From the NCBI RefSeq assembly GCF_044324785.1, contig NZ_CP172127.1: a stretch of DNA of 64,000 nucleotides. One strand, given 5' to 3'. Both the position numbers and the translations under genes were made by a program. The stretch is from Escherichia coli. Its GTDB lineage: Bacteria > Pseudomonadota > Gammaproteobacteria > Enterobacterales > Enterobacteriaceae. Numbering within the stretch: position 1 is the first letter of the stretch; every line of letters begins with the position of its first letter. This document shows, in pieces, positions 44,989-59,917 of this stretch. Below the pieces are notes generated by a model. It was not told the origin of the DNA. It saw only the letters and a list, made by a program, of their open reading frames with translations, and ran no database searches.

Positions 44989-45573
44989 TTATTGTTTGTT
45001 TTTTTCGTTCTGGTTGATGACAAATTCAATGTAACTTTCGATCTTTGCTTTCTCGGTTTCGGGTAACAAAGCGTAGCGCGAGCGGTCATAGTTGATAGTC
45101 GCAGGGTCGTGCGGGTGAATCAGTAATTCATAGCCGTGACGCCCGAATGCGGATGCAACATTCTCCAGGGTGGAAATGGAAACGCTGACCTCATTGTTTA
45201 ACAGGCGGCTGATTGTCACCTGGGCGACGCCGGATGCGCGGTGAAGTTTTCCCTGCGTTGAAAGGTCGCGGCTTTCGCTCATCCAGCGTTCCAGGTTGTG
45301 AGCCGCCAGTTGACCAATGTCGCTTGGTCCGACAGGCTGAAAACCTTCCTGAGAAAGCGAGCGATCGATATCAAGCCAGTTACGGGGTTTATTGGCGGCA
45401 GCTTCAATTTTTCGCGCAACCTGGTCGCCGATAACCTTCTTGCCAAGAGCCCAGCGGTTTACCAGATTTGCCTGAGTTCCAAGTTTTTCAGCCATCCGCG
45501 TCTGAACACCATTGAATTCACGGTCGATCAAGTCGTTGAGATTTTGCCTGCGGACGTCCTGGATACTTTTCAT
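44989..45573 (-). CDS. Prophage repressor candidate with two HTH segments and no S24 peptidase domain
   Basis: 194 aa. HTH-like stretches GVQTRMAEKLGTQANLVNRWALGK and STQGKLHRASGVAQVTISRLLNNE. Divergent from the cro-like gene across the palindrome pair. Confidence 0.7.
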   Translation of the reverse strand: MKSIQDVRRQNLNDLIDREFNGVQTRMAEKLGTQANLVNRWALGKKVIGDQVARKIEAAANKPRNWLDIDRSLSQEGFQPVGPSDIGQLAAHNLERWMSESRDLSTQGKLHRASGVAQVTISRLLNNEVSVSISTLENVASAFGRHGYELLIHPHDPATINYDRSRYALLPETEKAKIESYIEFVINQNEKNKQ

Positions 45574-46324: not shown

Positions 46325-47140
46325 ATGAGCAGACATGCAACAGATTGGGCCTGGGAGACAGATCCAGGTAGCTCGTCATTAAAGCTCATACTGCTCTCGA
46401 TGGCTGACAGAGCCGATGAATATAACCTCTGCTACCCCAGCATAGAACGCCTCGTTAAAGACACTTGCCTGAATAAAAAAACCGTGCAGGCCGGACTTAT
46501 ATCGCTCATGAAAATGGGGCTTATTTCAGATACCGGGGAGAGAAAGGGAGCGACAAAAAGAGTGCGGGTTTTCTCTCTTAATATAACCAAAAACGGGAAC
46601 ATTAAAGGCAACCGAGAGGGGGGCAATGAACCCGAAAACGGTAATGTTACCGAAAACGGGAATATACCCAAAAACGGGATGTTGAATGATCCCAAAAACG
46701 GGATGTTGAATGATCCCAAAAACGGGATCCAGAACCAGTCATATAACCAGTCATTTAACCAAGAGAGGGAGAGCAGGACAAAAAACGGGGATTCTGTGCA
46801 TCATGACCCCGGCGCAAACAACGCCGTGATGAATAACTTTGTTCCTCCTGGTGGGCCAGGGCAATTAGGCAAATTTGTCATGCATGAACAATGGCAGCCA
46901 TCAGATGACTTTCTTCGGAAAAGCTCATTGCAGGGGATCTACCTGGACAGTCTGCCAACGGCACAGGAACTTGCAGAGTTCAGAATTTACTGGATGGCTG
47001 AGGGTAAGGCATACCATCAGGCACAGTGGGAGCAGAAGCTGGCAAGGCGGCTGCAGATTAGCAGACAGAAGCAATCAACATTACCTGATAACAACGTTCC
47101 GCACTGGAACAGCCCTGAAGCGTGGGAGGATTTCTTGTGA
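46325..47140 (+). CDS. Replication initiator, lambda O-like role (N-terminal winged-HTH; iterons inside gene)
   Basis: 271 aa; SSLKLILLSMADRADEYNLCYPSIERLVKDTCLNKKTVQAGLISLMKMGLI; internal iterons; followed by a lambda-P homologue. Confidence 0.7.
   Translation: MSRHATDWAWETDPGSSSLKLILLSMADRADEYNLCYPSIERLVKDTCLNKKTVQAGLISLMKMGLISDTGERKGATKRVRVFSLNITKNGNIKGNREGGNEPENGNVTENGNIPKNGMLNDPKNGMLNDPKNGIQNQSYNQSFNQERESRTKNGDSVHHDPGANNAVMNNFVPPGGPGQLGKFVMHEQWQPSDDFLRKSSLQGIYLDSLPTAQELAEFRIYWMAEGKAYHQAQWEQKLARRLQISRQKQSTLPDNNVPHWNSPEAWEDFL
46587..46791. repeat. Iteron array (probable phage ori): seven CC(A/G)AAAACGGGA repeats
   Basis: Copies at 46587, 46632, 46650, 46667, 46691, 46715 and 46779. The three at 46667/46691/46715 sit on an exact 24-bp register (cccaaaaacgggatgttgaatgat). 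Confidence 0.65.
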
Positions 47141-47922
47141 ACAACGTTTTTACCGCAATACAAAACCGTGACGGAGAAGCCCTTTCTCGCATGTCAGGTT
47201 ATGAGCATCAGTACACCAACAATGACAACGTAGTGAACATGTCAGCAGAGAGGCTTGTTGATGCCCTTTTCAAACAGCTGAAACAACTGTTTCCGGCGGC
47301 AGTGGTAACCAACCTGAAGACGCCAGAGCAGGAAGTTGCTGCAAAACAGCAGTGGATTGCTGCGTTTGCCGAAGGGGGGATCCGAACCCGTGAACAGGTT
47401 TCTGCTGGTATGCGCCACGCCCGCGCCAGTGATTCTCCGTTCTGGCCGTCGCCAGGGCAATTCATCAAGTGGTGTAAAGACAGCAAGATGGTTCTTGGCG
47501 TCACCATTGACGATGTGATGGCGGAGTTTCACCGGTACAGCAAGGAAAAAAGTTTATATCCTGGTGGTCCCGAAAGATTCCCGTGGCGACATCAGGTTAT
47601 GTACTGGGTCGTATGTGATACCCGCCGTGCAATGTATCAGCGCCAGCTTAGCGAGATTGAGGTTGAGAAACACGCGCGCAGGCTGCTCGATGATTGGGCG
47701 AAAAAGGTGGCTTCCGGACAGCAGATACCCGATCCGGTGATCAGCATACAGGCAAAGCCAGAACCCATGAGTACGCCTCCGGACACAGGGAGAGACGTTT
47801 ACCATCCACCAGGGCGAAGTTTCGGGTGCATGCCTAACGCCGCCACCCTTGGGGGAATAACACCGGCGCAGTGGCTGATGGAGGAATACAGGCGGGGAAA
47901 GGCGTCAGGATTTATCAAGTAA
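47137..47922 (+). CDS. Lambda P-like replication protein (helicase loader)
   Basis: The by-eye alignment to lambda P is strong (FP...WIAAFAEGGIRTREQVSAGMRHARASDSPFWPSPGQFIKWC). GTG 47137 overlaps the O-like TGA; SD gggagga. Confidence 0.8.
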   Translation: MNNVFTAIQNRDGEALSRMSGYEHQYTNNDNVVNMSAERLVDALFKQLKQLFPAAVVTNLKTPEQEVAAKQQWIAAFAEGGIRTREQVSAGMRHARASDSPFWPSPGQFIKWCKDSKMVLGVTIDDVMAEFHRYSKEKSLYPGGPERFPWRHQVMYWVVCDTRRAMYQRQLSEIEVEKHARRLLDDWAKKVASGQQIPDPVISIQAKPEPMSTPPDTGRDVYHPPGRSFGCMPNAATLGGITPAQWLMEEYRRGKASGFIK

Positions 47923-47927
47923 TACCA

Positions 47928-47948
47928 GCGCGATAGCGCATTTTTTTA
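47928..47948 (+). terminator. Weak terminator after the P-like gene
   Basis: gcgc-gata-gcgc followed by attttttt. Only a 4-bp stem. Confidence 0.3.
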
Positions 47949-47959
47949 CGTCTCGATAA

Positions 47960-47974
47960 TTACCTTAGAGGTAA
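47960..47974. promoter_or_regulatory. Operator-like palindrome TTACCttagaGGTAA (perfect)
   Basis: Read directly; intergenic between the P-like and DUF1064 genes. Confidence 0.55.
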
Positions 47975-47993
47975 TAAAATATTCTAAAATCTA

Positions 47994-48022
47994 TTGATTT
48001 CGTGTCTTATGTGGTTTTTAAT
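47994..48022 (+). promoter_or_regulatory. Promoter candidate for the accessory (DUF1064...) module
   Basis: TTGATT (47994-47999), 17 nt, TTTAAT (48017-48022). The -10 overlaps the next palindrome. Confidence 0.4.
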
Positions 48023-48036
48023 TACCTAAGGGGTAA
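48022..48036. promoter_or_regulatory. Operator-like palindrome TTACCtaaggGGTAA (perfect)
   Basis: Read directly; ends 3 nt before ATG 48040 and contains its SD. Confidence 0.55.
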
Positions 48037-48039
48037 ATC

Positions 48040-48387
48040 ATGAGAAAACAGATGCAGGCTCTTGGTCGACTCAAAACAGGCCAGATGAACAAAACAGAAT
48101 CTGCGTATTGCCAGCACCTTGAGCTGCGTAAACGTGCAGGAGAAATCGTCTGGTATCGATTTGAGGGTATCAAGCTGCGGTTAGCTGACAACACGTTCTA
48201 TACGCCAGATTTTGCTGTGATGCTCGCCACCGGCGAGATGGAACTGCACGAAGTGAAAGGGGGATTCTGGACCGATGACGCCAGAGTGAAAACCAAAGTC
48301 GCCGCAGATCAGTATCCGTTCCGAATCATCGGGGTAACGGTTAAGCCAAAGAAAGCAGGTGGTGGCTGGAACATCGAAGAGTTCTGA
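48040..48387 (+). CDS. DUF1064-family (PD-(D/E)XK-like) phage protein
   Basis: 115 aa; NKTESAYCQHLELRKRAGEIVWYRFEGIKLRLADNTFYTPDFAV...ELHEVKG pattern. Confidence 0.65.
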   Translation: MRKQMQALGRLKTGQMNKTESAYCQHLELRKRAGEIVWYRFEGIKLRLADNTFYTPDFAVMLATGEMELHEVKGGFWTDDARVKTKVAADQYPFRIIGVTVKPKKAGGGWNIEEF

Positions 48388-48448
48388 ATCGACGATCTTT
48401 TTAGTTATCAATGTAATCAATAAGTTATGTGGATAAGCGAGGGTAAAG

Positions 48449-49000
48449 ATGGAAAGTAATATCAAAGGGTTAGTTGCCGCCGGGCATGAGATGGCTTCGG
48501 AACTGAAAGCAGAATGTGGTGCCGTTGATATGCGCAGTGTGGCAAAGCTGATCAGCGATTTGGCAACGCAACTGGAAGTGCAACTGGTGCGTGCTAATGC
48601 GCTGGCCGAAGACCAGCAGAAAGCGATTGAGTCAATTAAGCAGGCTGATTCGGCTGTTAAGTTGGCACACGAGAAGTTTTCGGAGCTGGCAGCGGAGAAT
48701 GCGAGACTGAAATCTGCGCACCCTCAACCATTCGGACCTGAGATGATGAAGGCTATTGATGCGTATGAGAAGTATCAGGATGAAGTGCCGGAGACTGGGA
48801 TGCTCAATGCATTTTTCATCTTGCGCGACAGTATCCGTGTTGACACCCCAGCCACCGAAGCATTCCTGGCTGAAGTACGGGCGCAGGGCGTGGAGATGGC
48901 TATGGAGCATATGCAGTCGAGCGGTTCGTTAACATTTGGAGATTGCTACATATCACTTAACGAGTTCGCCGCAGAGCTTCGCAAAGGAGGTAACCAGTGA
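48449..49000 (+). CDS. Hypothetical coiled-coil phage protein
   Basis: 183 aa; SD gaggg; 4-nt overlap with the next ORF. Confidence 0.6.
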   Translation: MESNIKGLVAAGHEMASELKAECGAVDMRSVAKLISDLATQLEVQLVRANALAEDQQKAIESIKQADSAVKLAHEKFSELAAENARLKSAHPQPFGPEMMKAIDAYEKYQDEVPETGMLNAFFILRDSIRVDTPATEAFLAEVRAQGVEMAMEHMQSSGSLTFGDCYISLNEFAAELRKGGNQ

Positions 49001-49296
49001 GTGTATATCTCATTGATAAACGCCGGCGTGGGCAACAAATACCATCTGTTGAAATGCCGAATCACACATGGTTTTGCGTACTTGATATCGATGGTATGGA
49101 TGCGTTGGTTAACACTCGTCATTACTGCGATACCGCAACAGCTACTCCGGCGAAAGCAAAGAAAATGGCTGCTCTGATAGAAAACTGGACTCCACCTGAT
49201 GGTTGGTGCAATGGGAATGATCGAGATTGGCACGAAAAAATGAAGGGCTATATCTGCGATTTTTTACGTAAATGCAACGGCTTCAGGGTGATGTGA
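48997..49296 (+). CDS. Hypothetical phage protein
   Basis: 99 aa; GTG start overlapping the previous stop; tight packing. Confidence 0.55.
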   Translation: MSVYLIDKRRRGQQIPSVEMPNHTWFCVLDIDGMDALVNTRHYCDTATATPAKAKKMAALIENWTPPDGWCNGNDRDWHEKMKGYICDFLRKCNGFRVM

Positions 49297-49297
49297 T

Positions 49298-49984
49298 ATG
49301 ACCAAAATTAACTATCAGGCACTGCGTGAGGCGGCAGAACGTGCAATTCCGGCAATGGAACGCCTGTTAATGTTGCCAGTTGATGATGATCTGATAAGCG
49401 AACAGGAACTTAAAGATTACGGTGTGGATATTGATGCGCTCAACGCCTTCAAATTTCTGGCCGGACCAGAAACCGTGCTGGCACTGCTGGATGAACGGGA
49501 AAGAAACCAGCAATACATAAAACGCCGCGACCAGGAGAACGAGGATATTGCGCTAACGGTAGGGAGGCTTCGCGTTGAGCTGGAAGGCAAAGACAGCAAA
49601 ATAGCCAATCTTACCGCCGAACGCGATGCTCTTCGTGAAGGTGAGATGGGCGACGCTAGGCATAGCAACACACGGGCCGCAGCTGATATCTACTTCCAAC
49701 TGGTCGAGGAGTGCGAAATTCCTGCTGGCGGATCTCTGGTCGAGTACGTTGACGATATGCGCGAGAAGCTGGAAGCCGCAGAGAAGCGCATTGCAGAGTT
49801 AGAAAGTGGTTCTCAGGCACAAAAGTTAGTTGAAGCAATCATTGTTGCGATAGAAAACGAACAGGAAAGGCTTTTTGATGAAGATTACCTAATGGATTCG
49901 AAAGAATGCATTGACGTAATTCGTGAAGAAGTAAAGCGATGGAATGATTCCCGTGCCGCTGGCATTCGCATCAAAGGAGAGTGA
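49298..49984 (+). CDS. Ead/Ea22-like coiled-coil protein
   Basis: 228 aa, MTKINYQALREAAERAIPAMERL...; heptad-rich centre as in lambdoid Ea22 proteins. Confidence 0.6.
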   Translation: MTKINYQALREAAERAIPAMERLLMLPVDDDLISEQELKDYGVDIDALNAFKFLAGPETVLALLDERERNQQYIKRRDQENEDIALTVGRLRVELEGKDSKIANLTAERDALREGEMGDARHSNTRAAADIYFQLVEECEIPAGGSLVEYVDDMREKLEAAEKRIAELESGSQAQKLVEAIIVAIENEQERLFDEDYLMDSKECIDVIREEVKRWNDSRAAGIRIKGE

Positions 49985-49985
49985 G

Positions 49986-50177
49986 ATGGACGGACAAATA
50001 TCAATCGTTAGACCAGGAGCATGTGACGATCGCGAAATACGAATAATTATTCGTCTGGCAATGGGGAAAGCAATAACTGCTCTCATTACCCCAGAAAATC
50101 TCGCATTAGCATTAACAGGAAAGTCAGACCTGCCAGTAGAGCTAAAGCTGCGAAATGTTGAGATTAAGGTGAAATAG
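49986..50177 (+). CDS. Hypothetical 63-aa protein
   Basis: ATG 49986 lies 2 nt after the previous stop (MDGQISIVRPGACDDREIR...). Confidence 0.5.
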   Translation: MDGQISIVRPGACDDREIRIIIRLAMGKAITALITPENLALALTGKSDLPVELKLRNVEIKVK

Positions 50178-50179
50178 CT

Positions 50180-50620
50180 ATGACCACTATTACCAAAGAA
50201 CGTATCGAATTATTCATTAAAAATCCTCTTGATAACGGGCTTACCCGTGGCGAACAAATGGAAGTGGCACGGATTGCACTGGCATCGCTGGAAGCAGAGC
50301 CAGTTATGTTCTGTATATCAGGACAAAATGTAGATTCAGAAGAACATGTATCAACCAGCAAAGCGGTTGTTGATGCCTGGGTTGAAGAATGGAATCAGGT
50401 TGACGGAAGTCCTGGCGAACCACTGTACAAAACTATGCCACTCTACTGTCACGCTACCTTGCCAGCGCCGGTAGTGCCTGAAGGACTGGTTAAAGCGGTG
50501 CGTTTTTATGAGCAGGTAAAAAATGAGAATCCGCCAGTTGGGACTGGTGCGTGGAAAGACGCTGTTGACTGGGTGCTCGAAGAGGCTTGCCAGGCTGTAA
50601 ATACAGACATCAAAGGATGA
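50180..50620 (+). CDS. Hypothetical protein sharing an N-terminal module with ORF 51031
   Basis: 146 aa; IALASLEAEPV motif also seen as ISLASLGAEPV in 51031-51594. Confidence 0.6.
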   Translation: MTTITKERIELFIKNPLDNGLTRGEQMEVARIALASLEAEPVMFCISGQNVDSEEHVSTSKAVVDAWVEEWNQVDGSPGEPLYKTMPLYCHATLPAPVVPEGLVKAVRFYEQVKNENPPVGTGAWKDAVDWVLEEACQAVNTDIKG

Positions 50621-50823
50621 ACGATATGGCAACCAACAATCGTAAAGCCAAGATGCTAATTTCCCGTGTATACAGACTTTGCTACCCCAGCCAGTGGTTG
50701 AGAGTTAGCAATCGCCGTGTGGTGTTGTTCTCATTTTCTGGAATTGCCAGAGAGGGAATCAAAGATAAGCGCAGCGCGGCGCAAAACCGCTGGAAAAACA
50801 ACTTGCGCACTAAAGGAGCCTAA
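50617..50823 (+). CDS. Hypothetical basic 68-aa protein
   Basis: ATGA overlap with the previous gene; stop 1 nt before the next ATG. Fills the only gap, but composition is unusual. Confidence 0.4.
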   Translation: MNDMATNNRKAKMLISRVYRLCYPSQWLRVSNRRVVLFSFSGIAREGIKDKRSAAQNRWKNNLRTKGA

Positions 50824-50824
50824 T

Positions 50825-51034
50825 ATGGCTATTGCCGCAAGTTACACCATGCATCTCTACTGTGATTGTCGCCAGTGTACAAATGGTAAATATCAGTCGC
50901 CAGACTTCGGTGAGTATATCGGTACGTCATGGGCTGGCTGTGCAAAAGAAGCACGTAAAGATGGATGGCGAATAAGCGCCGACAAAACACGTGCTTTTGC
51001 GCCCGGACATAAAGTTTTGAGGATTAACAAATGA
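50825..51034 (+). CDS. Hypothetical Cys-rich 69-aa protein
   Basis: MAIAASYTMHLYCDCRQCTNGKYQSPDFGEY...; ATGA-type overlap with the next gene. Confidence 0.5.
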   Translation: MAIAASYTMHLYCDCRQCTNGKYQSPDFGEYIGTSWAGCAKEARKDGWRISADKTRAFAPGHKVLRINK

Positions 51035-51594
51035 CAACATTTACCGACGACGACAAGAAACTAATTAAAGAAATCAGGGAGCGAATCGGCAGCCTGGACG
51101 TGCGAGACAATATTGAGCGCCGGGCTTATGAAATTTCTCTGGCATCACTGGGAGCAGAACCTGTAAGCCAAACTTACAACTTGCCAGAATTAATCGAAGG
51201 CATGGAGGTTTCCATTGATGTAAGCACTTGTGATGCGGATTTAGGTAATCGCTATTTCGGTACCGTCACCGAGGCGTTAGAACTTGATACTGCCAAGAAT
51301 GGTTACATCCTCCTGGTTCAGGACGCAGAGCCAAACTTCGATGTAAATGGCAACTCTCCGGTAACTCCGGATGGTTGGATAAGCTGTAGTGAGCTAATGC
51401 CGGAAAAGAACCAGAACGTGCTTATTTCGGTGAATTTCGATAGCTCTCTGGTTGAACCGCTAATATGCTCCGCACGCTATACAGGAAGCACATTCCGGCG
51501 AGGAGAAGCAACGATTAAGCCGGGCAATGGTATTGAGCAAGCAACTCACTGGATGCCGCTACCGGAACCACCGCAGGAGGTTAACCGTGGCTAA
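51031..51594 (+). CDS. DUF551-type phage protein
   Basis: 187 aa; C-terminal DGWISCSELMPEKNQNVLI...ATHWMPLPEPP is the DUF551 pattern. Confidence 0.65.
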   Translation: MTTFTDDDKKLIKEIRERIGSLDVRDNIERRAYEISLASLGAEPVSQTYNLPELIEGMEVSIDVSTCDADLGNRYFGTVTEALELDTAKNGYILLVQDAEPNFDVNGNSPVTPDGWISCSELMPEKNQNVLISVNFDSSLVEPLICSARYTGSTFRRGEATIKPGNGIEQATHWMPLPEPPQEVNRG

Positions 51595-51868
51595 CCTGCA
51601 ACTTGCCGTCAAAGGTGAATACTTCGATGCCATGATTCGCGGAGAGAAAACGGAAGAGTATCGCCTGTGTAATGACTACTGGAATAAGCGAATCATGTTC
51701 CGGGAATATGACCGCCTGATTATCACAAAGGGATATCCGAAGCGCGACGACTTCAGTCGCAGAATTGACGTCCCGTATGACGGATATGAAATCAAGACAA
51801 TCACACATCCGCACTTCGGTGATAAACCGGTAAAGGTGTTCGCGATAAAGGTAAATATTGATGGCTAA
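51587..51868 (+). CDS. ASCH-domain protein
   Basis: GTG 51587 behind SD aggagg; VKGEYFDAMIRGEKTEEYRL...ITKGYP resembles ASCH domains. Confidence 0.65.
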   Translation: MANLQLAVKGEYFDAMIRGEKTEEYRLCNDYWNKRIMFREYDRLIITKGYPKRDDFSRRIDVPYDGYEIKTITHPHFGDKPVKVFAIKVNIDG

Positions 51869-52199
51869 ATCAGCAGCAGAGCGCAAAGCCGCTCAGAGAG
51901 CCAGACAAGCTGCATCTGGTGTGCGTAAGCTGGAGATTGTGCTTGATGCTCAGGAAATTGAAATGCTGGAGCGTAACTGTGCCACGCGTCGCCCCGGGCG
52001 TGCGCCTTACGAATTTGGTGAGTATATAGCGTTACTGATCCGCCAGGATGATGCACGCGTGCACGGGCGTATAAAATCGATCAGCAGAAAACGTTGCGGT
52101 AAGTGCGGCGAGAGAGTTCCTGTAAATTCATGCCCGTGTAATGGTGACTCGCAATGCTGGGTGACTAAAGGCTGGCATGAAACGAAATTAATAGTGTGA
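51858..52199 (+). CDS. Ribbon-helix-helix-like N-terminus plus Cys-rich C-terminus; last gene before the late operon
   Basis: 113 aa; RKLEIVLDAQEIEMLERN (RHH-like) and CGKCGERVPVNSCPCNGDSQC. Confidence 0.5.
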   Translation: MMAKSAAERKAAQRARQAASGVRKLEIVLDAQEIEMLERNCATRRPGRAPYEFGEYIALLIRQDDARVHGRIKSISRKRCGKCGERVPVNSCPCNGDSQCWVTKGWHETKLIV

Positions 52200-52207: not shown

Positions 52208-52248
52208 GAGTAGATTATGCATGATGAATTTGATGGGTTTTGAATACT

Positions 52249-52274
52249 GCCGCCAACTATGGCGGCTTTATTTT
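52249..52274 (+). terminator. Intrinsic terminator upstream of the terminase operon
   Basis: gccgcc-aactat-ggcggc followed by tttatttt. Confidence 0.6.
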
Positions 52275-52285
52275 GCATGGTACTA

Positions 52286-52300
52286 TTACCACAACGGTAA
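52286..52300. promoter_or_regulatory. Operator-like palindrome TTACCacaacGGTAA (perfect)
   Basis: Read directly; 18 nt upstream of the terS start. Confidence 0.55.
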
Positions 52301-52303
52301 CTA

Positions 52304-52318
52304 TTACCACGGTGGTTA
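52304..52318. promoter_or_regulatory. Operator-like palindrome, one mismatch (TTACCacggtGGTTA)
   Basis: Read directly; its last base is the A of the terS ATG. Confidence 0.45.
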
Positions 52319-52914
52319 TGATGCCTGCTGAACCTAAAACCTATAAACGCAAATCAACGCAATTTAAGCCGCTCACAGCAATGCAGGAGGCTTATTGCCA
52401 GTCATACATCAAAACGCCTGAAAACCAGACTCAGGCAGCGATTAACGCAGGATTCTCCCCAAATACAGCGGCAGTTAAAGCCAGTGTCATGATGCGCGAT
52501 GAACGCATTCAAAAACGGATTGCCGAGTTGATGGAGGAGCGCAACAAACGAATGCGCGTCAGTGCTGATTACGTTCTCATGCGCTTGGTGGAGATCGACC
52601 AGATGGACGTGATCGATATCCTCAACGACGATGGGAGCCTTAAACCAATCCGTGAGTGGCCGAAAATCTGGCGCACTACGCTTAGTGGCTTTGATCTGTC
52701 ATCGACCATCATGAACATGAACGAGGATTCGATAGAGACAATCCTCAAAAAAATTAAATGGCCTGACAAGGTGAAGAACCTAGAACTGATTGGTAAGCAC
52801 GTCGACGTCAACGCATTCAAAGAACGCCTGGATGTTAATGTGAATGTGACAATTGCTGATCGCATAGCGGCAGCCAGGAAACGACTCAAAGAACGTCAGG
52901 ATGGTAATCAGTGA
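52318..52914 (+). CDS. terS: Terminase small subunit
   Basis: Start at ATG 52318 (MMPAEPKTYKRK). KPLTAMQEAYCQSYIKTPENQTQAAINAGFSPNTAAVKAS is the Terminase_2-type HTH. Overlaps terL by 4 nt. Confidence 0.8.
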   Translation: MMPAEPKTYKRKSTQFKPLTAMQEAYCQSYIKTPENQTQAAINAGFSPNTAAVKASVMMRDERIQKRIAELMEERNKRMRVSADYVLMRLVEIDQMDVIDILNDDGSLKPIREWPKIWRTTLSGFDLSSTIMNMNEDSIETILKKIKWPDKVKNLELIGKHVDVNAFKERLDVNVNVTIADRIAAARKRLKERQDGNQ

Positions 52915-54386
52915 CAGATGCAGCGTTATCTCCTGAAGAGCAGTTGATCGAGGATATTGCAGGGTTCACTCACGATCCGCTTGGCTATGCCCTCTATGCG
53001 TTCCCGTGGGGGGAAGAGGGGACTGAACTGGCACATGCCACCGGTCCACGTCAGTGGCAGGCTGATGCGTTCCGAGAGATACGTGATCACCTGCAGAATC
53101 CAGAGACGCGCTATCAGCCGCTTATGCTGGCACGCGCTTCTGGTCACGGTATTGGTAAATCCGCATTCATCTCAATGCTGATCAACTGGGGCATGTCCAC
53201 TTGCGAGGATTGTAAGGTCGTGGTGACCGCCAACACCGACAACCAGCTACGAACGAAGACCTGGCCGGAAATTATCAAGTGGTCGAACCTTGCTATCACG
53301 AAAGACTGGTTTACCTGTACCGCTACCGCGATGTACAGCAATGATCCTGGACACGACAAGCGGTGGCGAGCTGACGCAATCCCCTGGTCTGAGCACAACA
53401 CTGAGGCATTCGCCGGACTACACAACGAGCGCAAACGCATCATCGTGGTATTCGATGAAGCGTCGAACATTGCGGATCTGGTGTGGGAGGTAGCAGAGGG
53501 TGCGCTGACGGACGAAGACACCGAAATCATCTGGGTGGCGTTCGGGAACCCGACGCGTAATACCGGACGTTTCCGCGAATGTTTCCGCAAATATAAACAC
53601 CGCTGGAAAACTGCGCAGATTGACAGCCGGACGGTGGAAGGCACTAACAAACAGCAGTTGCAGAAATGGGTTGATGACTACGGGGAAGACAGCGACTTCG
53701 TTAAAATCCGTGTGCGTGGCATATTCCCTGATGCATCTGAATTGCAGTTTATCCCTACCGGTCTTACTGACGAGGCAATGAAACGGGTGGTAACCGCTGC
53801 GCAGGTTGCACATGCTCCGGTGATAATCGGCGTTGACCCGGCATACTCCGGCGTTGATGACGCTGTGATATACCTGCGGCAGGGGCTGCACAGTAAGGTG
53901 CTATGGACTGGTAACAAGACCACCGACGATCTGATTATGGCGAAGCGTATCGCTGACTTTGAAGACCAGTATCAGGCTGACGCAGTGTTCATCGACTTTG
54001 GTTACGGTACCGGTCTGAAGTCAATCGGTGACGGCTGGGGTCGTACATGGCAACTTGTTCCGTTCGGCGGTGCGTCTACTGACCCGCAGATGCTCAATAA
54101 GCGCGGGGAGATGTTCAATGCATGCAAGACATGGCTGAGGCTGGGCGGCATGCTGGATGACCAGGAAACAGCGGACGACCTGTCGGCGGCAGAGTACAAA
54201 GTTCGAGTGGACGGTAAAATCGTTATCGAACCGAAGGAAGATATCAAAGAGCGGCTTGGGCGTTCTCCTGGTAAAGGCGATGCGCTACTGCTGACGTTTG
54301 CGTTCCCTGTGTCGAAGCGTCTGCGAATTCCCGGGCAGCAGAACCAGCAAGGCAAGGCCATCACAGATTACGATCCCTATGCTTAA
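52911..54386 (+). CDS. terL: Terminase large subunit
   Basis: 491 aa; Walker A ARASGHGIGKSAF; Walker B-like IIVVFDEAS; position after terS. Confidence 0.9.
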   Translation: MTDAALSPEEQLIEDIAGFTHDPLGYALYAFPWGEEGTELAHATGPRQWQADAFREIRDHLQNPETRYQPLMLARASGHGIGKSAFISMLINWGMSTCEDCKVVVTANTDNQLRTKTWPEIIKWSNLAITKDWFTCTATAMYSNDPGHDKRWRADAIPWSEHNTEAFAGLHNERKRIIVVFDEASNIADLVWEVAEGALTDEDTEIIWVAFGNPTRNTGRFRECFRKYKHRWKTAQIDSRTVEGTNKQQLQKWVDDYGEDSDFVKIRVRGIFPDASELQFIPTGLTDEAMKRVVTAAQVAHAPVIIGVDPAYSGVDDAVIYLRQGLHSKVLWTGNKTTDDLIMAKRIADFEDQYQADAVFIDFGYGTGLKSIGDGWGRTWQLVPFGGASTDPQMLNKRGEMFNACKTWLRLGGMLDDQETADDLSAAEYKVRVDGKIVIEPKEDIKERLGRSPGKGDALLLTFAFPVSKRLRIPGQQNQQGKAITDYDPYA

Positions 54387-54431
54387 TCCTCTGGTGGGGA
54401 TAATGTCGTTGATATCCTCTGGTGAGGATAA
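54386..54431. repeat. Two 18-nt direct repeats ATCCTCTGGTG(G/A)GGATAA, each a small hairpin
   Basis: Copies at 54386-54403 and 54414-54431 (17/18 identical). The second folds as tatcctc-tggt-gaggata. Confidence 0.6.
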
Positions 54432-54436
54432 AACAA

Positions 54437-54456
54437 AGCCAGCTCATAGGCTGGCT
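54437..54456. terminator. Bidirectional terminator between terL (+) and the gp49-like gene (-)
   Basis: agccagc-tcatag-gctggct; T-rich on the minus side (ttgtttt), gttt on the plus side. Confidence 0.6.
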
Positions 54457-54470
54457 GTTTGTGACATGTC

Positions 54471-54482
54471 ACGGTGTTATTG
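54471..54482. promoter_or_regulatory. 12-bp perfect palindrome GTGACATGTCAC, copy 2
   Basis: Identical to 52196-52207; overlaps the stop of the gp49-like gene. Confidence 0.4.
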
Positions 54483-54833
54483 CTCGCTTAACTTCTGCTT
54501 CAGCAAGTAACCTTCAAGCATCCAGATTTTGTTTACAGCATTCTGCCGGGCAATCTTCCGACCAATTTCTGCATCAAAGTTTTCCGGGCTTGCACAGGCA
54601 CTCTCTCCGGTAACGGTGAAGCCATTCTTCAGTACCAATACGCAGAAAGTCAGGAGGTCTGTAGATTTATGCGCTACCCATGAATCGCCAACGCCCATAT
54701 TGGCAGCACGAATGCCGTCATAAGCAGTAAAGAAATGCTCTTCAAGAATGATGCTTTCGATATATTGAGGCGTAACTCGCGGAGCGGTTTTGCCTTTCTC
54801 AACGATTTCTTTTTCGATTTGCTGGTCGTTCAT
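54477..54833 (-). CDS. N4 gp49 / Sf6 gp66-family phage protein
   Basis: 118 aa; LTFCVLVLKNGFTVTGESACASPENFDAEIGRKIARQNAVNKIW matches my memory of that family. Opposite strand to the flanking late genes. Confidence 0.65.
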   Translation of the reverse strand: MNDQQIEKEIVEKGKTAPRVTPQYIESIILEEHFFTAYDGIRAANMGVGDSWVAHKSTDLLTFCVLVLKNGFTVTGESACASPENFDAEIGRKIARQNAVNKIWMLEGYLLKQKLSEQ

Positions 54834-54844
54834 AATCTCACCTT

Positions 54845-54868
54845 AAAAAAATGCCCGGCGAACCGGGC
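54845..54868 (-). terminator. Intrinsic terminator abutting the gp49-like RBS
   Basis: Minus strand gcccgg-ttcg-ccgggc + attttttt, then AAGGTGAG-att-ATG. Confidence 0.6.
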
Positions 54869-54944
54869 GAACTGGAAGCAATGAGTTATGCCTTCCGTGG
54901 CTGTACTGGTTTACAGCATGAAGTCATCGCAATGGCGTCGTGCT

Positions 54945-54988
54945 GTAAAAAGGGCGGTGATAGTCCTTCAAGGGAAACCATCACCGCC
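54945..54988 (-). terminator. Intrinsic terminator downstream of the tRNA
   Basis: Minus strand ggcggtgat-N18-atcaccgcc followed by cttttta. Confidence 0.6.
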
Positions 54989-55031
54989 AAGCCCCTGGAA
55001 CTTCTGGCATCACGGTCCTTAGGCGTGATTC

Positions 55032-55108
55032 TGGCGTGGCATGCAGGATTCGAACCTGCGACCAACCGCTTAGAAGGCGGTTGCTCTGTCCGACTGAGCT
55101 AATGCCAC
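55032..55108 (-). tRNA. tRNA-Arg (anticodon UCU), phage-encoded, CCA encoded
   Basis: Hand-folded cloverleaf: GTGGCAT/ATGCCAC acceptor, GCTC/GAGC D stem, ACCGC-CTTCTAA-GCGGT anticodon arm, GCAGG-TTCGAAT-CCTGC T arm, G-CCA. Confidence 0.9.
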
Positions 55109-55430
55109 AACGCTGAGAGCACTTAGCCTGTTAAGGCGCCACACTTTGTCGCGGCTCCATAAATGCTCTCATCGTTGTACCCTCGTCTCTTCCGAGGCGT
55201 CACACCGAATCGCCGGGATGGTGAATCCCCGTGCGCGGAATAAAACCGCTCGACTTGCACATTCCGGCTACCTGGTTCGTTTGCCCGAGCAAGGGAGGGT
55301 GCCCCTTAAACGTATCCAGACCGCTATCGGCGCATGTGCCATACGCCGTACTGCTCAAAATAAAAGCTCACTCCACCTGTTTAATTTAACGACAAGCCAG
55401 TCAGGTTAGTAACCAGAATGAGCTCTTTAG
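55109..55430 (-). ncRNA. Unassigned ~320-nt GC-rich leader between promoter and tRNA (candidate structured RNA)
   Basis: No convincing ORF. Contains an 11-bp helix gagagcattta/taagtgctctc (55118-55128 / 55163-55173) and several local hairpins. Bounded by a sigma70-like promoter and the tRNA. Confidence 0.3.
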
Positions 55431-55445
55431 TTACCCGAAAGGTAA
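55431..55445. promoter_or_regulatory. Operator-like palindrome TTACCcgaaaGGTAA (perfect)
   Basis: Read directly; overlaps the -10 of the minus-strand tRNA-cassette promoter. Confidence 0.55.
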
Positions 55446-55467
55446 TAATTCACGCGTTAAATGTCAA
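55439..55467 (-). promoter_or_regulatory. Promoter candidate for the leader-tRNA unit
   Basis: Minus strand TTGACA (55467-55462), 17 nt, TACCTT (55444-55439). Confidence 0.4.
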
Positions 55468-55535
55468 CCTTCTACGATAAATAAATCATATGTGGTTAAA
55501 TTGGTAATAATTTAATTGCGTACGGAGTCATTGAT

Positions 55536-55742
55536 ATGTGCATGGGTAGCTCACCATCAGTGCCTGCAACACCAGAAGTTCAGGCAGCACCACAGGAGCA
55601 GGATGCCGCCGTTGTTGATGCCCGCGACGAAGAAACACGTCGCCGTCGCGCTGCTGCTGGTCGTAGTTCTACGCTGCTTACCGGTTCTCAGGGCGACACA
55701 TCAACCGCTAATACCAGCGGTAAAACGCTGCTTGGTCAGTAA
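55536..55742 (+). CDS. Small hypothetical protein preceding the portal gene
   Basis: 68 aa, low complexity (MCMGSSPSVPATPEVQAAPQ...). Its RBS context cggagtcattgatATG is nearly identical to that of the portal gene. Confidence 0.45.
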   Translation: MCMGSSPSVPATPEVQAAPQEQDAAVVDARDEETRRRRAAAGRSSTLLTGSQGDTSTANTSGKTLLGQ

Positions 55743-55756
55743 CCGGAGTCATTGAA

Positions 55757-57436
55757 ATGGCGGAAACAACTAAAGAGCGATTGAACAAACAGTTCGCACA
55801 ACTTGAAAGCGAGCGTCAGTCGTTCGAGCCGCACTGGCGCGAGTTGAGTGATTACATCAACCCGCGTGGTTCCCGCTTTCTGACTTCTGAGGTCAACCGT
55901 AACGATCGACGCAATACACGTATTATTGATTCGACCGGGACTATGGCGGCGCGCACTCTCGCCAGCGGCATGATGTCAGGCATCACAAGCCCCGCGCGTC
56001 CGTGGTTTCGCCTGGCTACGCCAGATCCTGAAATGATGGATTATGGCCCTGTTAAGTTGTGGCTTGAGGCGGTGCAGAACCGCATGAACGATATGTTCAA
56101 TAAGTCGAATCTCTACCAGTCTCTTCCGCAGTTATACGGAAGCCTCGGCACATACAGCACCGGTGCAATGGCGGTACTGGAGGATGACGAGGACATCATT
56201 CGCACAATGCCATTCCCGATAGGCAGTTACTACCTGGCTAACTCACCTCGTGGCAGTGTTGACACCTGTTTTCGCAAGTTCTCTATGACTGTTCGTCAGC
56301 TTGTTCAGGAGTTCGGGCTAAATAACGTCAGCGAATCCGTAAAAAGCATGTGGGAAAGCGGCACCTACGAGAAGTGGATCGAAGTGATGCATTCGGTTTA
56401 CCCGAACATTGACCGCGATACATCGAAGCTGGATAGCAAGAACAAGCCATTCAAATCGGTTTATTACGAGGTTGGTGGCGATAACGACAAGTTGTTGCGT
56501 GAGTCCGGATTCGATGAGTTTCCAATTATGGCTCCGCGCTGGGAAGTTAATGGCGAAGATGTTTATGGATCATCATGCCCGGGTATGCTGGCGCTTGGAC
56601 CTGTTAAGGCATTGCAGCTTCTCCAGAAGCGCAAGTCGCAGTTGATTGATAAAGCCACCAATCCGCCGATGGTTGCTCCGACTTCCCTCAAGAATCAGCG
56701 TGCCTCCCTTCTTCCTGGCGACATCACGTATATCGATCAGATTACTGGTCAGGATGGCTTCAGGCCTGCTTATCTGGTTAACCCCAGTACAGCAGATTTG
56801 GTGGCAGACATTCAGGACACTCGTCAAATCATTAACAGCGCCTACTTCGTCGATCTGTTCATGATGTTGCAGAACATCAATACCCGCTCAATGCCTGTTG
56901 AAGCGGTGATCGAAATGAAAGAAGAAAAGCTTCTGATGTTGGGGCCGGTTCTGGAGCGTCTGAACGACGAATGTCTTAATCCTCTCATTGACCGCGCTTT
57001 CTCGATGATGGTGCGTAAAAACATGCTGCCGCCACCGCCTGACGCGATGGAAGGCATGCCCCTGAAGGTCGAATACATTTCCGTCATGGCTCAGGCGCAG
57101 AAGTCTATCGGCCTGTCCAGTCTGGCGTCCACGGTTAACTTCATTGGTCAACTTGCGCAAGCGAAACCAGAAGCTCTCGACAAACTCAACGTTGATCAGG
57201 CGATCGATGCATTCGCTGATATGTCCGGAGTGTCTCCAACCGTCATTGTTCCGCAGGAACAGGTTGAGCAGGCTCGCCAGCAACGGGCACAGCAGCAACA
57301 GCAGCAACAAATGATGGCGATGGGGATGGCGGCGGCACAGGGTGCCAAGACGCTAAGCGAAGCTAAAACTTCGGATCCGAGTGTTTTGTCAGCTATGGCG
57401 AATGCAGTTAGTGGTCAGGGTGGGCAATCACAATGA
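55757..57436 (+). CDS. Portal (head-to-tail connector) protein, podovirus type
   Basis: 559 aa; the N-terminus ERLNKQFAQLESERQSFEPHWRELSDYINPRGSRF resembles T7/BPP-1-type connectors; Gln-rich tail; position before scaffold and capsid. Confidence 0.8.
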   Translation: MAETTKERLNKQFAQLESERQSFEPHWRELSDYINPRGSRFLTSEVNRNDRRNTRIIDSTGTMAARTLASGMMSGITSPARPWFRLATPDPEMMDYGPVKLWLEAVQNRMNDMFNKSNLYQSLPQLYGSLGTYSTGAMAVLEDDEDIIRTMPFPIGSYYLANSPRGSVDTCFRKFSMTVRQLVQEFGLNNVSESVKSMWESGTYEKWIEVMHSVYPNIDRDTSKLDSKNKPFKSVYYEVGGDNDKLLRESGFDEFPIMAPRWEVNGEDVYGSSCPGMLALGPVKALQLLQKRKSQLIDKATNPPMVAPTSLKNQRASLLPGDITYIDQITGQDGFRPAYLVNPSTADLVADIQDTRQIINSAYFVDLFMMLQNINTRSMPVEAVIEMKEEKLLMLGPVLERLNDECLNPLIDRAFSMMVRKNMLPPPPDAMEGMPLKVEYISVMAQAQKSIGLSSLASTVNFIGQLAQAKPEALDKLNVDQAIDAFADMSGVSPTVIVPQEQVEQARQQRAQQQQQQQMMAMGMAAAQGAKTLSEAKTSDPSVLSAMANAVSGQGGQSQ

Positions 57437-57729
57437 CAGATTACGAAGACGATCAACTGAAAGAAGAAAACGCCCGTAAGCAACGTGACATGGCACAGCG
57501 TGAAATTGATGACATTCGCTTTGTCATGAGCAGTGAACAGGGGCGTCGCGTTGTCTGGTCGGTGCTGGAGAAAGGCCGTGTGTTTTCCGCTATCTCACCG
57601 ATGGACGCTATGGCAATGGCATTTAATGAGGGGCAACGCAATCTGGCGCTGGAACTGTTTCAGCGCGTTATGGCGCATTGCCCTGAACAGTATTTGAAGA
57701 TGGCCAAAGAGGCCAGTGAACAGGAGTGA
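57433..57729 (+). CDS. Small head-module protein (Bbp19-like by eye)
   Basis: 98 aa; 4-nt overlap with the portal gene; GRRVVWSVLEKGRVF...NEGQRNLALELF. Confidence 0.5.
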   Translation: MTDYEDDQLKEENARKQRDMAQREIDDIRFVMSSEQGRRVVWSVLEKGRVFSAISPMDAMAMAFNEGQRNLALELFQRVMAHCPEQYLKMAKEASEQE

Positions 57730-57731
57730 TC

Positions 57732-58427
57732 ATGAATTTATTTGAGCGTTTGCTGTATAGCCGTCTTTGCAATGAGCAACCAGTCGATGGTGGAGCAGCT
57801 CCGGCTGCGTCAGAACCGTCAGCGCCTGCAGGTGATAACCCTGCTCCAGTTGGTGATCCATCACAACAGGAAGGTGATAAGCCACAACCTGTTGCTGATG
57901 GCGATAAACCTGCTGATGACAAAAAGCCTGAAAACGATAAGCAGGATGAAAAAAAGGACGGCGATAAACCAGAGGGTGCGCCTGAGAAGTACGAGTTTCA
58001 GGCTGCCGAAGGCGTAGAGCTGGATACAGAAGCGTTGAAGGAATTCGAGCCGGTGGCGCGAGAACTTAACCTGACCAACGAGCAAGCGCAAAAGCTGGTT
58101 GATGCTTATCCGAAGATTCTGGCAGGTGTTCAGCAGCGCCAGGCAGAAGCCTGGCAGAAAACAACCGAGCAGTGGGCTGCGGATGTAAAAGCTGACAAAG
58201 AAATCGGTGGCGACAAGTTGATTTCTAACCTTAGCGCCGCACAGCGTGCGCTTGACCAGTTCGGGACACCTGAACTCAAAGAATATCTGAACACCACCGG
58301 GCTGGGTAATCACCCTGATCTGGTCAAAACGTTCGTGAAAATCGGAAAGGCGATGTCTGAAGATGGCATGGTCACCGGTGGTAATGAAGGCCAGCGTAGT
58401 GCGGCCGAAGTGCTCTATGGCAAATAA
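57732..58427 (+). CDS. Scaffolding protein candidate
   Basis: Acidic, Pro/Asp/Lys-rich then helical; between portal and major capsid; ATG 57732 behind SD aggag. Confidence 0.6.
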   Translation: MNLFERLLYSRLCNEQPVDGGAAPAASEPSAPAGDNPAPVGDPSQQEGDKPQPVADGDKPADDKKPENDKQDEKKDGDKPEGAPEKYEFQAAEGVELDTEALKEFEPVARELNLTNEQAQKLVDAYPKILAGVQQRQAEAWQKTTEQWAADVKADKEIGGDKLISNLSAAQRALDQFGTPELKEYLNTTGLGNHPDLVKTFVKIGKAMSEDGMVTGGNEGQRSAAEVLYGK

Positions 58428-58435
58428 GAGAGGAA

Positions 58436-59428
58436 ATGACAATGTCTGTTAAAGGCTTAACTGCGCTAACGCTGGCTGACTGGGGTAAGCGCGTCGATCC
58501 AAACGGGAAAGTCGATAAGATTATCGAGCTTCTCGGTCAAACTAACCCGATCCTTCAGGATATGCCTTTTGTCGAAGGGAACCTTCCTACCGGACACCGA
58601 ACCACCATTCGTTCTGGTTTACCTTCAGCTACCTGGCGTTTGCTGAACTATGGCGTACAGCCAAGCAAATCAACCACAGTGCAGGTAACCGATTCCGTTG
58701 GCATGCTGGAAACCTATGCTGAAGTCGATAAGTCACTGGCTGATCTGAACGGCAATACCGCCGAATTCCGCCTGTCTGAAGACCGCGCATTTATTGAAGC
58801 GATGAATCAGCAGATGGCGCAGACGCTGTTTTATGGTGATTCCAGCGTTAACCCTCAGCAGTTTATGGGACTGTCCTCCCGCTATTCCAGCCTGTCTGCG
58901 GGTAATGCTCAGAACATCATTGATGCTGGTGGCACGGGTACAGATAACACCTCAATCTGGTTAGTGGTGTGGGGCGAAAACACCGTGCATGGCATCTTCC
59001 CGAAAGGGCAGAAGGCTGGCATCCAGATGGAAGATAAAGGCCAGGTGACACTGGAAGATGCTAATGGCGGCAAGTACGAAGGCTATCGCACCCATTACAA
59101 ATGGGACAACGGACTTGTTCTGCGTGACTGGCGTTATGTTGTTCGCATTGCAAATATCGATGTCAGCAATCTTTCAGAACCTTCCTCTGCCGCAAATATT
59201 GCGAAGTTGATGGTTAAAGCACTACATCGCATTCCAAACCGTGGCATGGGCCGCCCGGTGTTCTACATGAACCGCACTGTAGGCCAGGATCTTGATCTGC
59301 AGTCTCTGGAGAAAACATCTCTGGCTATCAGCGTAAAAGAGACTGAAGGCGAGTGGTGGACTTCATTCCGTGGTGTACCAATCCGTGAAACTGATGCGCT
59401 TCTGGAAACAGAAGCCCGCGTGGTGTAA
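58436..59428 (+). CDS. Major capsid protein
   Basis: 330 aa; position after the scaffold; followed by a stem-loop (59445-59464); sequence type recalled from BPP-1/epsilon15-like capsids. Confidence 0.8.
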   Translation: MTMSVKGLTALTLADWGKRVDPNGKVDKIIELLGQTNPILQDMPFVEGNLPTGHRTTIRSGLPSATWRLLNYGVQPSKSTTVQVTDSVGMLETYAEVDKSLADLNGNTAEFRLSEDRAFIEAMNQQMAQTLFYGDSSVNPQQFMGLSSRYSSLSAGNAQNIIDAGGTGTDNTSIWLVVWGENTVHGIFPKGQKAGIQMEDKGQVTLEDANGGKYEGYRTHYKWDNGLVLRDWRYVVRIANIDVSNLSEPSSAANIAKLMVKALHRIPNRGMGRPVFYMNRTVGQDLDLQSLEKTSLAISVKETEGEWWTSFRGVPIRETDALLETEARVV

Positions 59429-59479
59429 CGCCTGTTATTAACCTGTGGGTCGTAACAGACCCACTAATGGAGAAAGAAG

Positions 59480-59917
59480 ATGATCACCGACAAACTGTTG
59501 ATGTTCTCCGAAGCTCAGGCGGTTACGAATACCGCGGCTTCTACTGACGTAATCGATCTCGGTCCAATTGACGGAAAACGTCGTGATATCGGCGTGGGTT
59601 ACCCGCTTGAGTTTTGGGTGCTGGTTAACGAAGCCGCCACGGCAAGTGGTGAGGCAACTGTAAACATCCAGTTGCAGACGAGTGAGAATAACAGCTCATG
59701 GACCACTATTTATGATAGTGGTGCACTGGCAAAGACCGCCCTGACAGCAGGTAAACGAGTTGTTTCTGCAAAGGTGCCTGCCGGTGTTCAGCGATATCTG
59801 CGTGTTAACTACTCCGTCGCAACTGGCCCACTAACGGCTGGCGAATTCACTGCGGGTATCAGTCTTGATGTTGATGCCAATACGCCGTATCCGATCCGTT
59901 CAAAAGTAACTGGTTAA
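59480..59917 (+). CDS. Capsid decoration/cement protein candidate (Bbp16-like)
   Basis: 145 aa immediately after the capsid gene; assignment from size, position and a vague family memory. Confidence 0.45.
   Translation: MITDKLLMFSEAQAVTNTAASTDVIDLGPIDGKRRDIGVGYPLEFWVLVNEAATASGEATVNIQLQTSENNSSWTTIYDSGALAKTALTAGKRVVSAKVPAGVQRYLRVNYSVATGPLTAGEFTAGISLDVDANTPYPIRSKVTG

Follow-up and report, generated by a model that had tools for sequence, protein, structure and literature searches.

A conserved pseudoknotted leader RNA in an inverted cassette between the terminase and portal genes of a Uetakevirus prophage, and its possible role as a cis-acting early element

Why would a short unit read in the opposite direction sit between the terminase and portal genes of a prophage, and what might it do there? 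The question is raised by positions 54387-55535 of a 64,000-nt stretch of an Escherichia coli genome (assembly GCF_044324785.1, contig NZ_CP172127.1), which we refer to as the window. The cassette comes from a Uetakevirus prophage of the phiV10/epsilon15 type and is the exact gap that separates the stop of the large terminase gene terL (54386) from a conserved 68-aa open reading frame (ORF) starting at 55536; all recognisable features within it are on the minus strand. At its centre is a pseudoknotted leader RNA, which is almost certainly a real structured RNA family and appears, from its sequence, to be one not described before. The locus as a whole is best explained as an early leftward accessory unit of the prophage with a cis-acting leader RNA, an explanation to which we assign a probability of roughly 0.5. 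According to this explanation, the unit would be silent in the lysogen and would fire at induction or infection. The leader RNA would act in cis on the polymerase that had just made it, like the put RNA of phage HK022, and transcripts from the cassette promoter would then read through two terminators, T1 and T2, to a cargo gene. The tRNA-Arg of the cassette would help decode AGA-rich early genes, and the Acb4-family product of the cargo gene would soak up the cyclic-nucleotide signals of the cyclic oligonucleotide-based antiphage signalling system (CBASS). In lambdoid phages that lack N, the same RNA would carry PL transcripts past the terminator that precedes the early-left genes.

The structural evidence for the leader RNA is extensive. 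The covariance model R1 finds one copy in the window (146.5 bits, E = 1.4e-39, approximately 55352-55106), with five core helices (P1 to P5), one covarying pseudoknot (PK1) and a terminal helix, P6. R1 was built from a first MAFFT alignment of 34 non-redundant sequences, which supports helices P1, P2, P4 and P5: 95.9% of cells pair, compared with 24-46% when the partners are slid, 12 pairs carry two-sided changes, and none of 500 shuffles reaches the observed values. A 61-sequence alignment based on R1, with 58 distinct sequences, gives the same picture: it is 95.8% paired, two-sided changes affect 13 pairs and 139 cells, and again no shuffle out of 500 comes up to these values. The MAFFT alignment, the model-based alignment and a blind mutual-information scan agree on compensatory changes in P1, P2, P4, P5 and PK1. 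The pseudoknot joins the CACC of the P4 loop to a downstream GGUG, replaced by AACC and GGUU in some lambdoids; a second pseudoknot, GCAC with GUGC, is possible and lies beyond the covariation test because it is invariant. P6 encloses a variable insert. Compensation preserves this helix in 33 variants, and its duplex energy has a median of -27.5 kcal/mol against -10.5 kcal/mol for a shuffled control; its last bases are the first three bases of the tRNA-Arg. Long single-stranded stretches, such as GGUAGCCGGAAUGUGCAAG, are invariant in phages that otherwise share little. The initial annotation of the locus had listed an "unknown RNA" in the leader; an RNA is indeed present, and that entry rated it too low, since it represents a widespread, conserved structured family.

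Several other identities for the leader were considered and set aside. A protein-coding leader was rejected, as lengths fall in all three residues modulo 3 and no frame stays open throughout the variants. An element acting at the DNA level is unlikely, since the helices hold many strand-specific G-U pairs, which also indicate that the RNA is read from the minus strand of the cassette. Degenerate tRNAs were rejected because ARAGORN and the Rfam tRNA model find one tRNA only, and a riboswitch because the terminators lie more than 100 nt past the RNA with a tRNA between, so that an expression platform never overlaps the fold. None of the Rfam 15 covariance models overlaps the leader RNA at E <= 1 in the window or in four other variants, and a literature search with conserved words of the RNA found no paper. 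By eye, a GGUAGCC stretch resembles the RfaH ops element at 8 of 12 positions.

The anatomy of the cassette, in which we have high confidence, is as follows, listed in the direction of its transcription and then with its plus-strand neighbours.
55461-55466, minus strand: -35 hexamer TTGACA of the cassette promoter, by direct sequence reading.
55438-55443, minus strand: -10 hexamer TACCTT, weak, with 3 of 6 matches.
55431-55445, no strand: operator-like palindrome TTACC-N5-GGTAA, overlapping the -10 hexamer.
55353-55430, minus strand: 5' leader from the inferred transcription start to helix P1, partly kept among uetakeviruses.
About 55106-55352, minus strand: the structured RNA, with its own covariance model.
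55352-55169, minus strand: core of the structured RNA, helices P1 to P5 and the pseudoknot.
55180-55162 paired with 55124-55106, minus strand: terminal helix P6.
55032-55108, minus strand: tRNA-Arg with anticodon UCU, by ARAGORN and the Rfam tRNA model.
54953-54988, minus strand: terminator T1, a 14-bp stem followed by CUUUUUAC, from a scan for hairpins with U-runs.
54869-54952, minus strand: T1-T2 spacer, non-coding and conserved in an alignment of 16 diverse loci.
54853-54868, minus strand: terminator T2, GCCCGG-UUCG-CCGGGC followed by AUUUUUUU, from the hairpin and U-run scan.
54477-54833, minus strand: acb4-family gene (Gp49, PF13876), 118 aa, by a full-profile Pfam match.
54437-54456, minus strand: terminator T3, the cassette end, adjoining the terL stop, from the hairpin and U-run scan.
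52240-52914, plus strand: terS (PF03592).
52911-54386, plus strand: terL.
55536-55742, plus strand: conserved 68-aa ORF (phrog_831), a homolog of epsilon15 gp3.
55757-57436, plus strand: portal gene (PF12236).
E. coli prophages and phiV10 share this layout, at 96-98% identity. That the cassette is a minus-strand unit amid plus-strand late genes was thus confirmed, with terS, terL, the 68-aa ORF and the portal gene all on the plus strand, and the expectation that it carries its own promoter and operator at one end holds as well: TTGACA-17-TACCTT is overlapped by a repressor-type palindrome. The 68-aa ORF always lies between cassette and portal gene, begins MCMGSS, has an arginine-rich centre and has no Pfam match.

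When would this unit be transcribed? The promoter on the minus strand consists of TTGACA (55466-55461), a 17-nt spacer and TACCTT (55443-55438). A generic promoter scan did not list it because the -10 hexamer matches at only 3 of 6 positions; TTGACA-17-TACCTT or TTGACC-17-TACCTT is nevertheless the best promoter-like site in most related terL-portal loci, the latter being the version in Klebsiella phages. Transcription would start near 55431. The palindrome overlapping the -10 hexamer, TTACCTTTCGGGTAA at 55445-55431, belongs to a set: the window contains 14 copies of TTACC-N5-GGTAA where 1.1 would be expected, and none of 100 shuffles reaches 14. Copies flank a helix-turn-helix (HTH) repressor gene at 44989-45573 and also occur at the start of terS; positions recorded for the motif are 44855, 44917, 45629, 45677, 46014, 47960, 48022, 52286, 52304 and 55431. 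Judging from this distribution, the palindrome seems to mark every promoter of the prophage that is under repressor control, among them one where terS begins. The RefSeq record of epsilon15 lists the homologous sites as repressor-binding and also places an RNase III site in the stretch homologous to the 55353-55430 leader. Because the cassette promoter carries what appears to be the phage's own operator, the cassette should be repressed in the lysogen and would be expressed early, at induction or infection.

What lies downstream of the RNA shows how the cassette is built. T1 (about -22 kcal/mol) is conserved in the aligned related terL-portal loci, and T2 is immediately followed by the ribosome-binding site of the cargo. 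The 84-nt spacer between them, which includes a hairpin ACAGCA...UGCUGU, is kept across phages of E. coli, Salmonella, Klebsiella and Enterobacter. The cargo junction falls exactly after the U-run of T2, so that a promoter has no space there; each cargo brings its own ribosome-binding site. Since T1 and T2 are conserved and the cargo follows T2 directly, transcription of the cargo must pass both terminators. Related loci keep the scaffold of promoter, RNA, T1 and T2 and swap only the gene after T2. In 34 related loci that include terL, the place between T2 and terL holds Acb4, Tad2-like proteins, unknown proteins of 89-306 aa or no gene. The Tad2-like cargo (PF11195) of Klebsiella and other relatives matches Pfam at 3e-24 to 4e-26 and the Protein Data Bank (PDB) Tad2 at 4e-16; BLASTP gave no direct similarity between Gp49 and this cargo. 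At the distal end, where a bidirectional terminator had been proposed, a minus-strand terminator is present: by the scan, the T3 hairpin qualifies as a terminator in the minus direction only, although in the record of phiV10 it is entered as one on the plus strand. In the phage Tyrion (L004), which has two cargo genes in the cassette, a match to the Rfam int-alpA RNA lies between them (1637-1701, minus strand; 44 bits against a gathering score of 35.8).

These results bear on the proposal that the cassette is a classical moron, that is, a block acquired as such, expressed alone from the prophage and carrying a tRNA that resists tRNA-targeting nucleases. Its opposite orientation, its own promoter and terminators, a cargo of counter-defence type and the incompleteness of the cassette in some relatives all fit this proposal. 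A moron would be expected to have a lysogen-active promoter free of phage regulation, however, and here a putative operator of the phage overlaps the -10 hexamer, with a counterpart annotated as a repressor site in epsilon15. The scaffold is conserved in related loci with the gene after T2 as the sole variable, and the tRNA has a standard CUUCUAA anticodon loop while AGA codons are concentrated in early genes. Taking both sides together, we consider a classical moron very unlikely. The initial annotation had also regarded the cassette as an independently acquired accessory unit; its accessory character stands, and its independence as a moron fits poorly with the phage operator and the conserved scaffold. 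Nor is the cassette universally conserved with the structural module: related loci vary, and epsilon15 has a deletion that takes out T1, the tRNA and most of the leader RNA. The variable cargo and the loss in epsilon15 together indicate that the unit is accessory, with no part in morphogenesis, and that the slot behaves as an anti-defence hotspot.

The present cargo fits such a slot. The 118-aa protein of the window matches PF13876 over positions 1-82 of the 82-position profile (118.9 bits against a cut-off of 27, E = 1.4e-34), and phmmer relates it to PDB entry 9E4W at E = 0.006. Its AlphaFold2 model (predicted local distance difference test score 80.2) shows the fold of the Acb4 protomer, with three antiparallel strands (29-36, 61-68 and 73-79), flanking helices and a long C-terminal helix (88-116). 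In a Foldseek search the top 13 matches are all chains of 9E4W, with probability 1.00 and target-normalised template modelling scores of 0.65-0.75. PF13876 ("N4 Gp49 / Sf6 gene 66") was uncharacterised until one of its members, Acb4 of phage SPO1, was reported to form a tetramer that acts as a sponge for the cyclic dinucleotides of CBASS; in the same report, 8 of 8 homologs tested bind 3'3'-cGAMP (bioRxiv 10.1101/2024.12.30.630793). The cargo can thus no longer be called a protein family of unknown function, and the suggestion of a counter-defence role is supported for the protein, by its family and by a predicted fold that matches 9E4W. We compared the ligand contacts of SPO1 Acb4 (K36, F48, E49, V56, Y57, F62, N63, I66, T70 and K81) in the phmmer alignment: F48, F62 and I66 are kept as F72, F86 and I90, and E49, Y57 and N63 are changed to T73, A81 and D87. 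The window protein is therefore like SPO1 Acb4 in its full-profile match and predicted fold, and unlike it in being only 24% identical and in having several ligand-contact residues changed. We regard its membership in the Acb4 family as highly probable, and its action as a sponge is a prediction. The alternation of cargo after T2 resembles known anti-defence hotspots, with a Tad2-like gene, whose family (PF11195) includes the anti-Thoeris sponge, in relatives; unlike those hotspots, the slot lies behind a fixed platform of promoter, RNA and double terminator within the late-gene region. Uetakeviruses thus keep, in the late region, a slot that would be expressed early and that exchanges genes for Acb4 (CBASS) and Tad2 (Thoeris) sponges, and the position after T2 is a good place to seek new anti-defence genes.

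The tRNA of the cassette was proposed to be relevant to rare codons or to anticodon nucleases. ARAGORN folds tRNA-Arg(UCU) as a cloverleaf, and Rfam RF00005 scores it at 73.3 bits against a gathering score of 29; the anticodon loop is the standard CUUCUAA. Among 20 prophage genes, 17 of 19 AGA codons fall in the early and replication genes at 46325-52199, where they reach about 10 per 1,000 codons, and the late genes from terS to 59917 (52240-59917) contain none. This concentration points to ordinary codon supply by a tRNA that would be expressed early. A single gene, the one at 46325, contains 6 AGA and 3 AGG codons. In the loci without a tRNA (L004, L007, L014, L023, L056 and L115), GUGGUGAA and a hairpin GCGCAGGCUGAUGCGC directly follow P6; they resemble the 5' acceptor strand and D-arm of a tRNA and are probably a tRNA remnant.

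Why the leader RNA should be so strongly conserved is best approached through its occurrence elsewhere. Unannotated counterparts 70-83% identical to it are found in unrelated phages. Lambdoid carriers include cdtI, mEp460, 2H10, Ayreon, Stx2c phages and some Stx2a phages; other carriers are P1, P7 and P1-like phage-plasmids and uetakeviruses of Salmonella, Klebsiella and Enterobacter. A scan of IMG/VR with 17-mers gave at least 120 loci and 111 distinct core sequences. We surveyed the contexts of 129 loci. Lambdoids account for about 63 of them, the terL-portal gap of uetakeviruses for about 42 and P1-like elements for about 18. In all three groups the RNA comes after an early promoter under repressor control. 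The remaining loci appear to follow this pattern; L040, the one inspected, has the RNA after a divergent HTH repressor. In the lambdoid loci the RNA is always downstream of a cI-type repressor and on the same strand; these loci represent many immunity types, since the repressors are 31-100% identical to two references. The order in cdtI is cI, its terminator, a promoter TTGACA-16-CATAAT with the same operator as OR, and then the RNA, followed by a terminator of -19 kcal/mol, about 250 nt of non-coding sequence and genes of the yfdP-yfdQ type. By this gene order the RNA of cdtI is in the nutL/putL position. In some lambdoid variants the -10 hexamer lies just 7 nt upstream of helix P1, and the RNA is therefore the first thing transcribed. 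No N gene is annotated in the lambdoid phages that carry the RNA. Phage LLS, which is related to these lambdoids, has no N homolog, and a put-like RNA mechanism may operate in it (Genome Res 2025, PMC12315714). Strong intrinsic terminators lie +240 to +660 past the RNA in both lambdoid and uetakevirus contexts.

These features suggest that the leader RNA is a cis-acting antiterminator, or an anti-pausing element, a reading that we hold at somewhat less than even odds. The arguments for it are the position of the RNA, the lack of N, the two conserved terminators that the cargo follows without a promoter between, and one variant with a perfect rrn boxA after it. More tentatively, the RNA may add a third class, unrelated in structure, to the protein-independent processive antiterminators, after HK022 put and the eps-associated RNA (EAR) of Bacillus, and serve as the missing early antitermination device of the many lambdoids without N (cdtI, mEp460, 2H10 and Stx2c phages). 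If so, P1-like phages and uetakeviruses may have recruited it, in the latter as a platform for the expression of anti-defence genes. The RNA is a concrete candidate for the early antitermination device of these lambdoids, in which Casjens and colleagues (2025) noted that a put-like RNA "may" act.

Comparison with known systems shows where this idea is strong and where it strains. Like put of HK022, the leader RNA is a non-coding, structured, cis-encoded RNA just downstream of a repressor-controlled PL in a lambdoid without N, with terminators after it. Unlike put, which has about 70 nt, two stem-loops and two copies per genome, it has about 170 nt (core) to about 245 nt, six helices and a pseudoknot, and one copy per genome. 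Membership in the put family is rejected, since size, fold, copy number and sequence differ. Whereas put binds the zinc-binding domain of the β' subunit of RNA polymerase and suppresses termination with no help from proteins, antitermination by the leader RNA is a prediction. A search of HK022 with R1 gave no match, and only chance 9- to 11-mers are common to the RNA and the HK022 immunity region; the R1 search of the cdtI genome likewise found no putR-like second copy. The RNA shares its nutL position with the nut site of λ, and the 3' strand of P6 begins with UGCUCU like boxA of λ nut and rrn. The likeness is suggestive at most: there is no N gene and the UGCUCU is base-paired within P6, whereas boxA would call for a single-stranded GCUCUUUA core with a boxB hairpin. 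A perfect rrn boxA, TGCTCTTTAACAA, is present in one variant only (the lambdoid L087), where a hairpin after P5 replaces P6 and the boxA follows it. The likeness may be incidental, because the reverse complement gives the same word on the P6 helix. Versions of the boxA-like stretch of the AGCTCTTTAA type occur in L031 and L044. EAR of Bacillus subtilis is a pseudoknotted RNA of about 120 nt inside an operon and promotes read-through of distal terminators. It differs from the leader RNA in belonging to an unrelated host group, and no Rfam match links the two, if EAR is among the 4,227 models.

A number of observations weigh against a cis-acting leader that carries transcription to the cargo. 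The RNA has neither the sequence nor the architecture of put and is present as a single copy per phage, with no left and right pair, and the -10 hexamer of the cassette is weak. In P1-like elements it lies in the middle of an operon with no intrinsic terminator within 900 nt downstream. L066 and L102 keep promoter, RNA and terminators and have no cargo gene, a unit that looks like a stand-alone RNA gene; epsilon15, in the reverse situation, retains T2 and acb4 despite the deletion of most of the RNA. The minus strand of L025, a lambdoid contig from IMG/VR, carries tandem copies of the RNA (3988-4156 and 4795-4961) about 800 nt apart. In L025 each copy is followed by an ORF for a membrane protein on the opposite strand. 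Finally, the RNA abuts a tRNA at 0-2 nt in two contexts, which suggests excision as a discrete, stable molecule.

The last point opens a different explanation, in which the RNA is a discrete, stable, trans-acting molecule, excised by tRNA-processing enzymes, that serves as decoy, sponge or inhibitor of a conserved host component, in aid of host takeover or counter-defence. RNase P would release it at the 5' end of tRNA-Arg, and in phage P1 the 3' processing of tRNA-Ile would do so; T1 and T2 would merely end an RNA/tRNA gene, and acb4 would be expressed by leaky read-through. The abutment is precise: wherever a terL-portal locus has the tRNA, the RNA ends exactly at position +1 of tRNA-Arg. 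In phage P1 (L178, NC_005856) it lies at 71010-71194 and begins 2 nt past the end of trnI; the 286-nt gap between trnI and ban holds nothing else. This copy is inside the C1-controlled ban operon and is unannotated despite 535 features in the record; the operon also carries a "dicF-like region". The units without a cargo gene, the tandem copies at one locus and the location beside anti-defence genes accord with a trans-acting RNA, and the invariant single strands imply a conserved host partner. There is precedent in the T4 stable RNAs C and D (species 1 and 2), structured RNAs that are encoded within the T4 tRNA cluster, co-transcribed with the phage tRNAs and freed by tRNA-processing enzymes. 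Phages can also deploy RNA mimics of ToxI against ToxIN. The leader RNA resembles RNAs C and D in adjoining tRNA-Arg at 0 nt and tRNA-Ile at 2 nt, but it has no sequence relation to them, and most of its copies, the lambdoid ones, have no adjoining tRNA. In lambdoids, moreover, a terminated RNA gene after PL would block the sole early-left promoter unless it were antiterminated. No candidate target emerged, and by Rfam the RNA resembles no known decoy class. On balance we think a trans-acting RNA somewhat unlikely; if it were true, the RNA would be a new phage RNA effector.

A third possibility is that the leader serves processing or stability without acting on RNA polymerase directly, by directing cleavage by RNase III, RNase E or RNase P, by protecting tRNA and mRNA, or by blocking the loading of Rho. 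The RNase III site that the epsilon15 record places in the leader is in keeping with this, as is the length of untranslated RNA (about 600-700 nt), an easy target for Rho; the variants without a tRNA also keep the remnant of acceptor strand and D-arm. Near-invariant loops and junctions and a pseudoknot in three phage groups nevertheless exceed what a nuclease site or a stabiliser usually needs, and the P1-like copies, which have neither P6 nor a downstream tRNA, still keep the core. We judge a processing leader improbable, and leave the remaining probability to other roles of the RNA. A cis-acting leader in an early leftward accessory unit stays our preferred explanation of the locus.

Whatever its mode of action, the RNA is common. 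Of 5,426 complete E. coli genomes, 1,839 contain its core; these copies number 2,473, of which 554 are on plasmids, and no RNA annotation occurs at the copies listed from these genomes. A pseudoknotted RNA present in about one-third of complete E. coli genomes and in P1, phiV10 and Stx2c-converting phages is thus unannotated in all records inspected and has no Rfam family or match in the literature searched. In a scan of species-representative genomes, true copies were confined to Enterobacterales (Escherichia, Klebsiella, Citrobacter, Enterobacter, Kosakonia, Phytobacter, Kluyvera and Erwinia) apart from one 1.7-kb contig binned as Bacillota, which is probably misbinned. Relatives outside Enterobacterales were rejected: pattern hits in Dokdonella, actinobacteria and others sit in coding sequence and fail R1. 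The CPS-53 prophage of E. coli K-12 has yfdP-yfdQ in common with the lambdoid carriers, and the leader RNA was not found there; in this prophage (L177, 7240-7610) yfdP-yfdQ-yfdR are retained, the repressor, PL and the RNA are lost, and the gap contains short direct repeats of the GATTTTGACG type. An antirepressor control module of the P1/Gifsy type, made up of a C4 antisense RNA and isrK, is present in the PR operons of cdtI and mEp460 (L005, 277-465; L175, 1206-1394).

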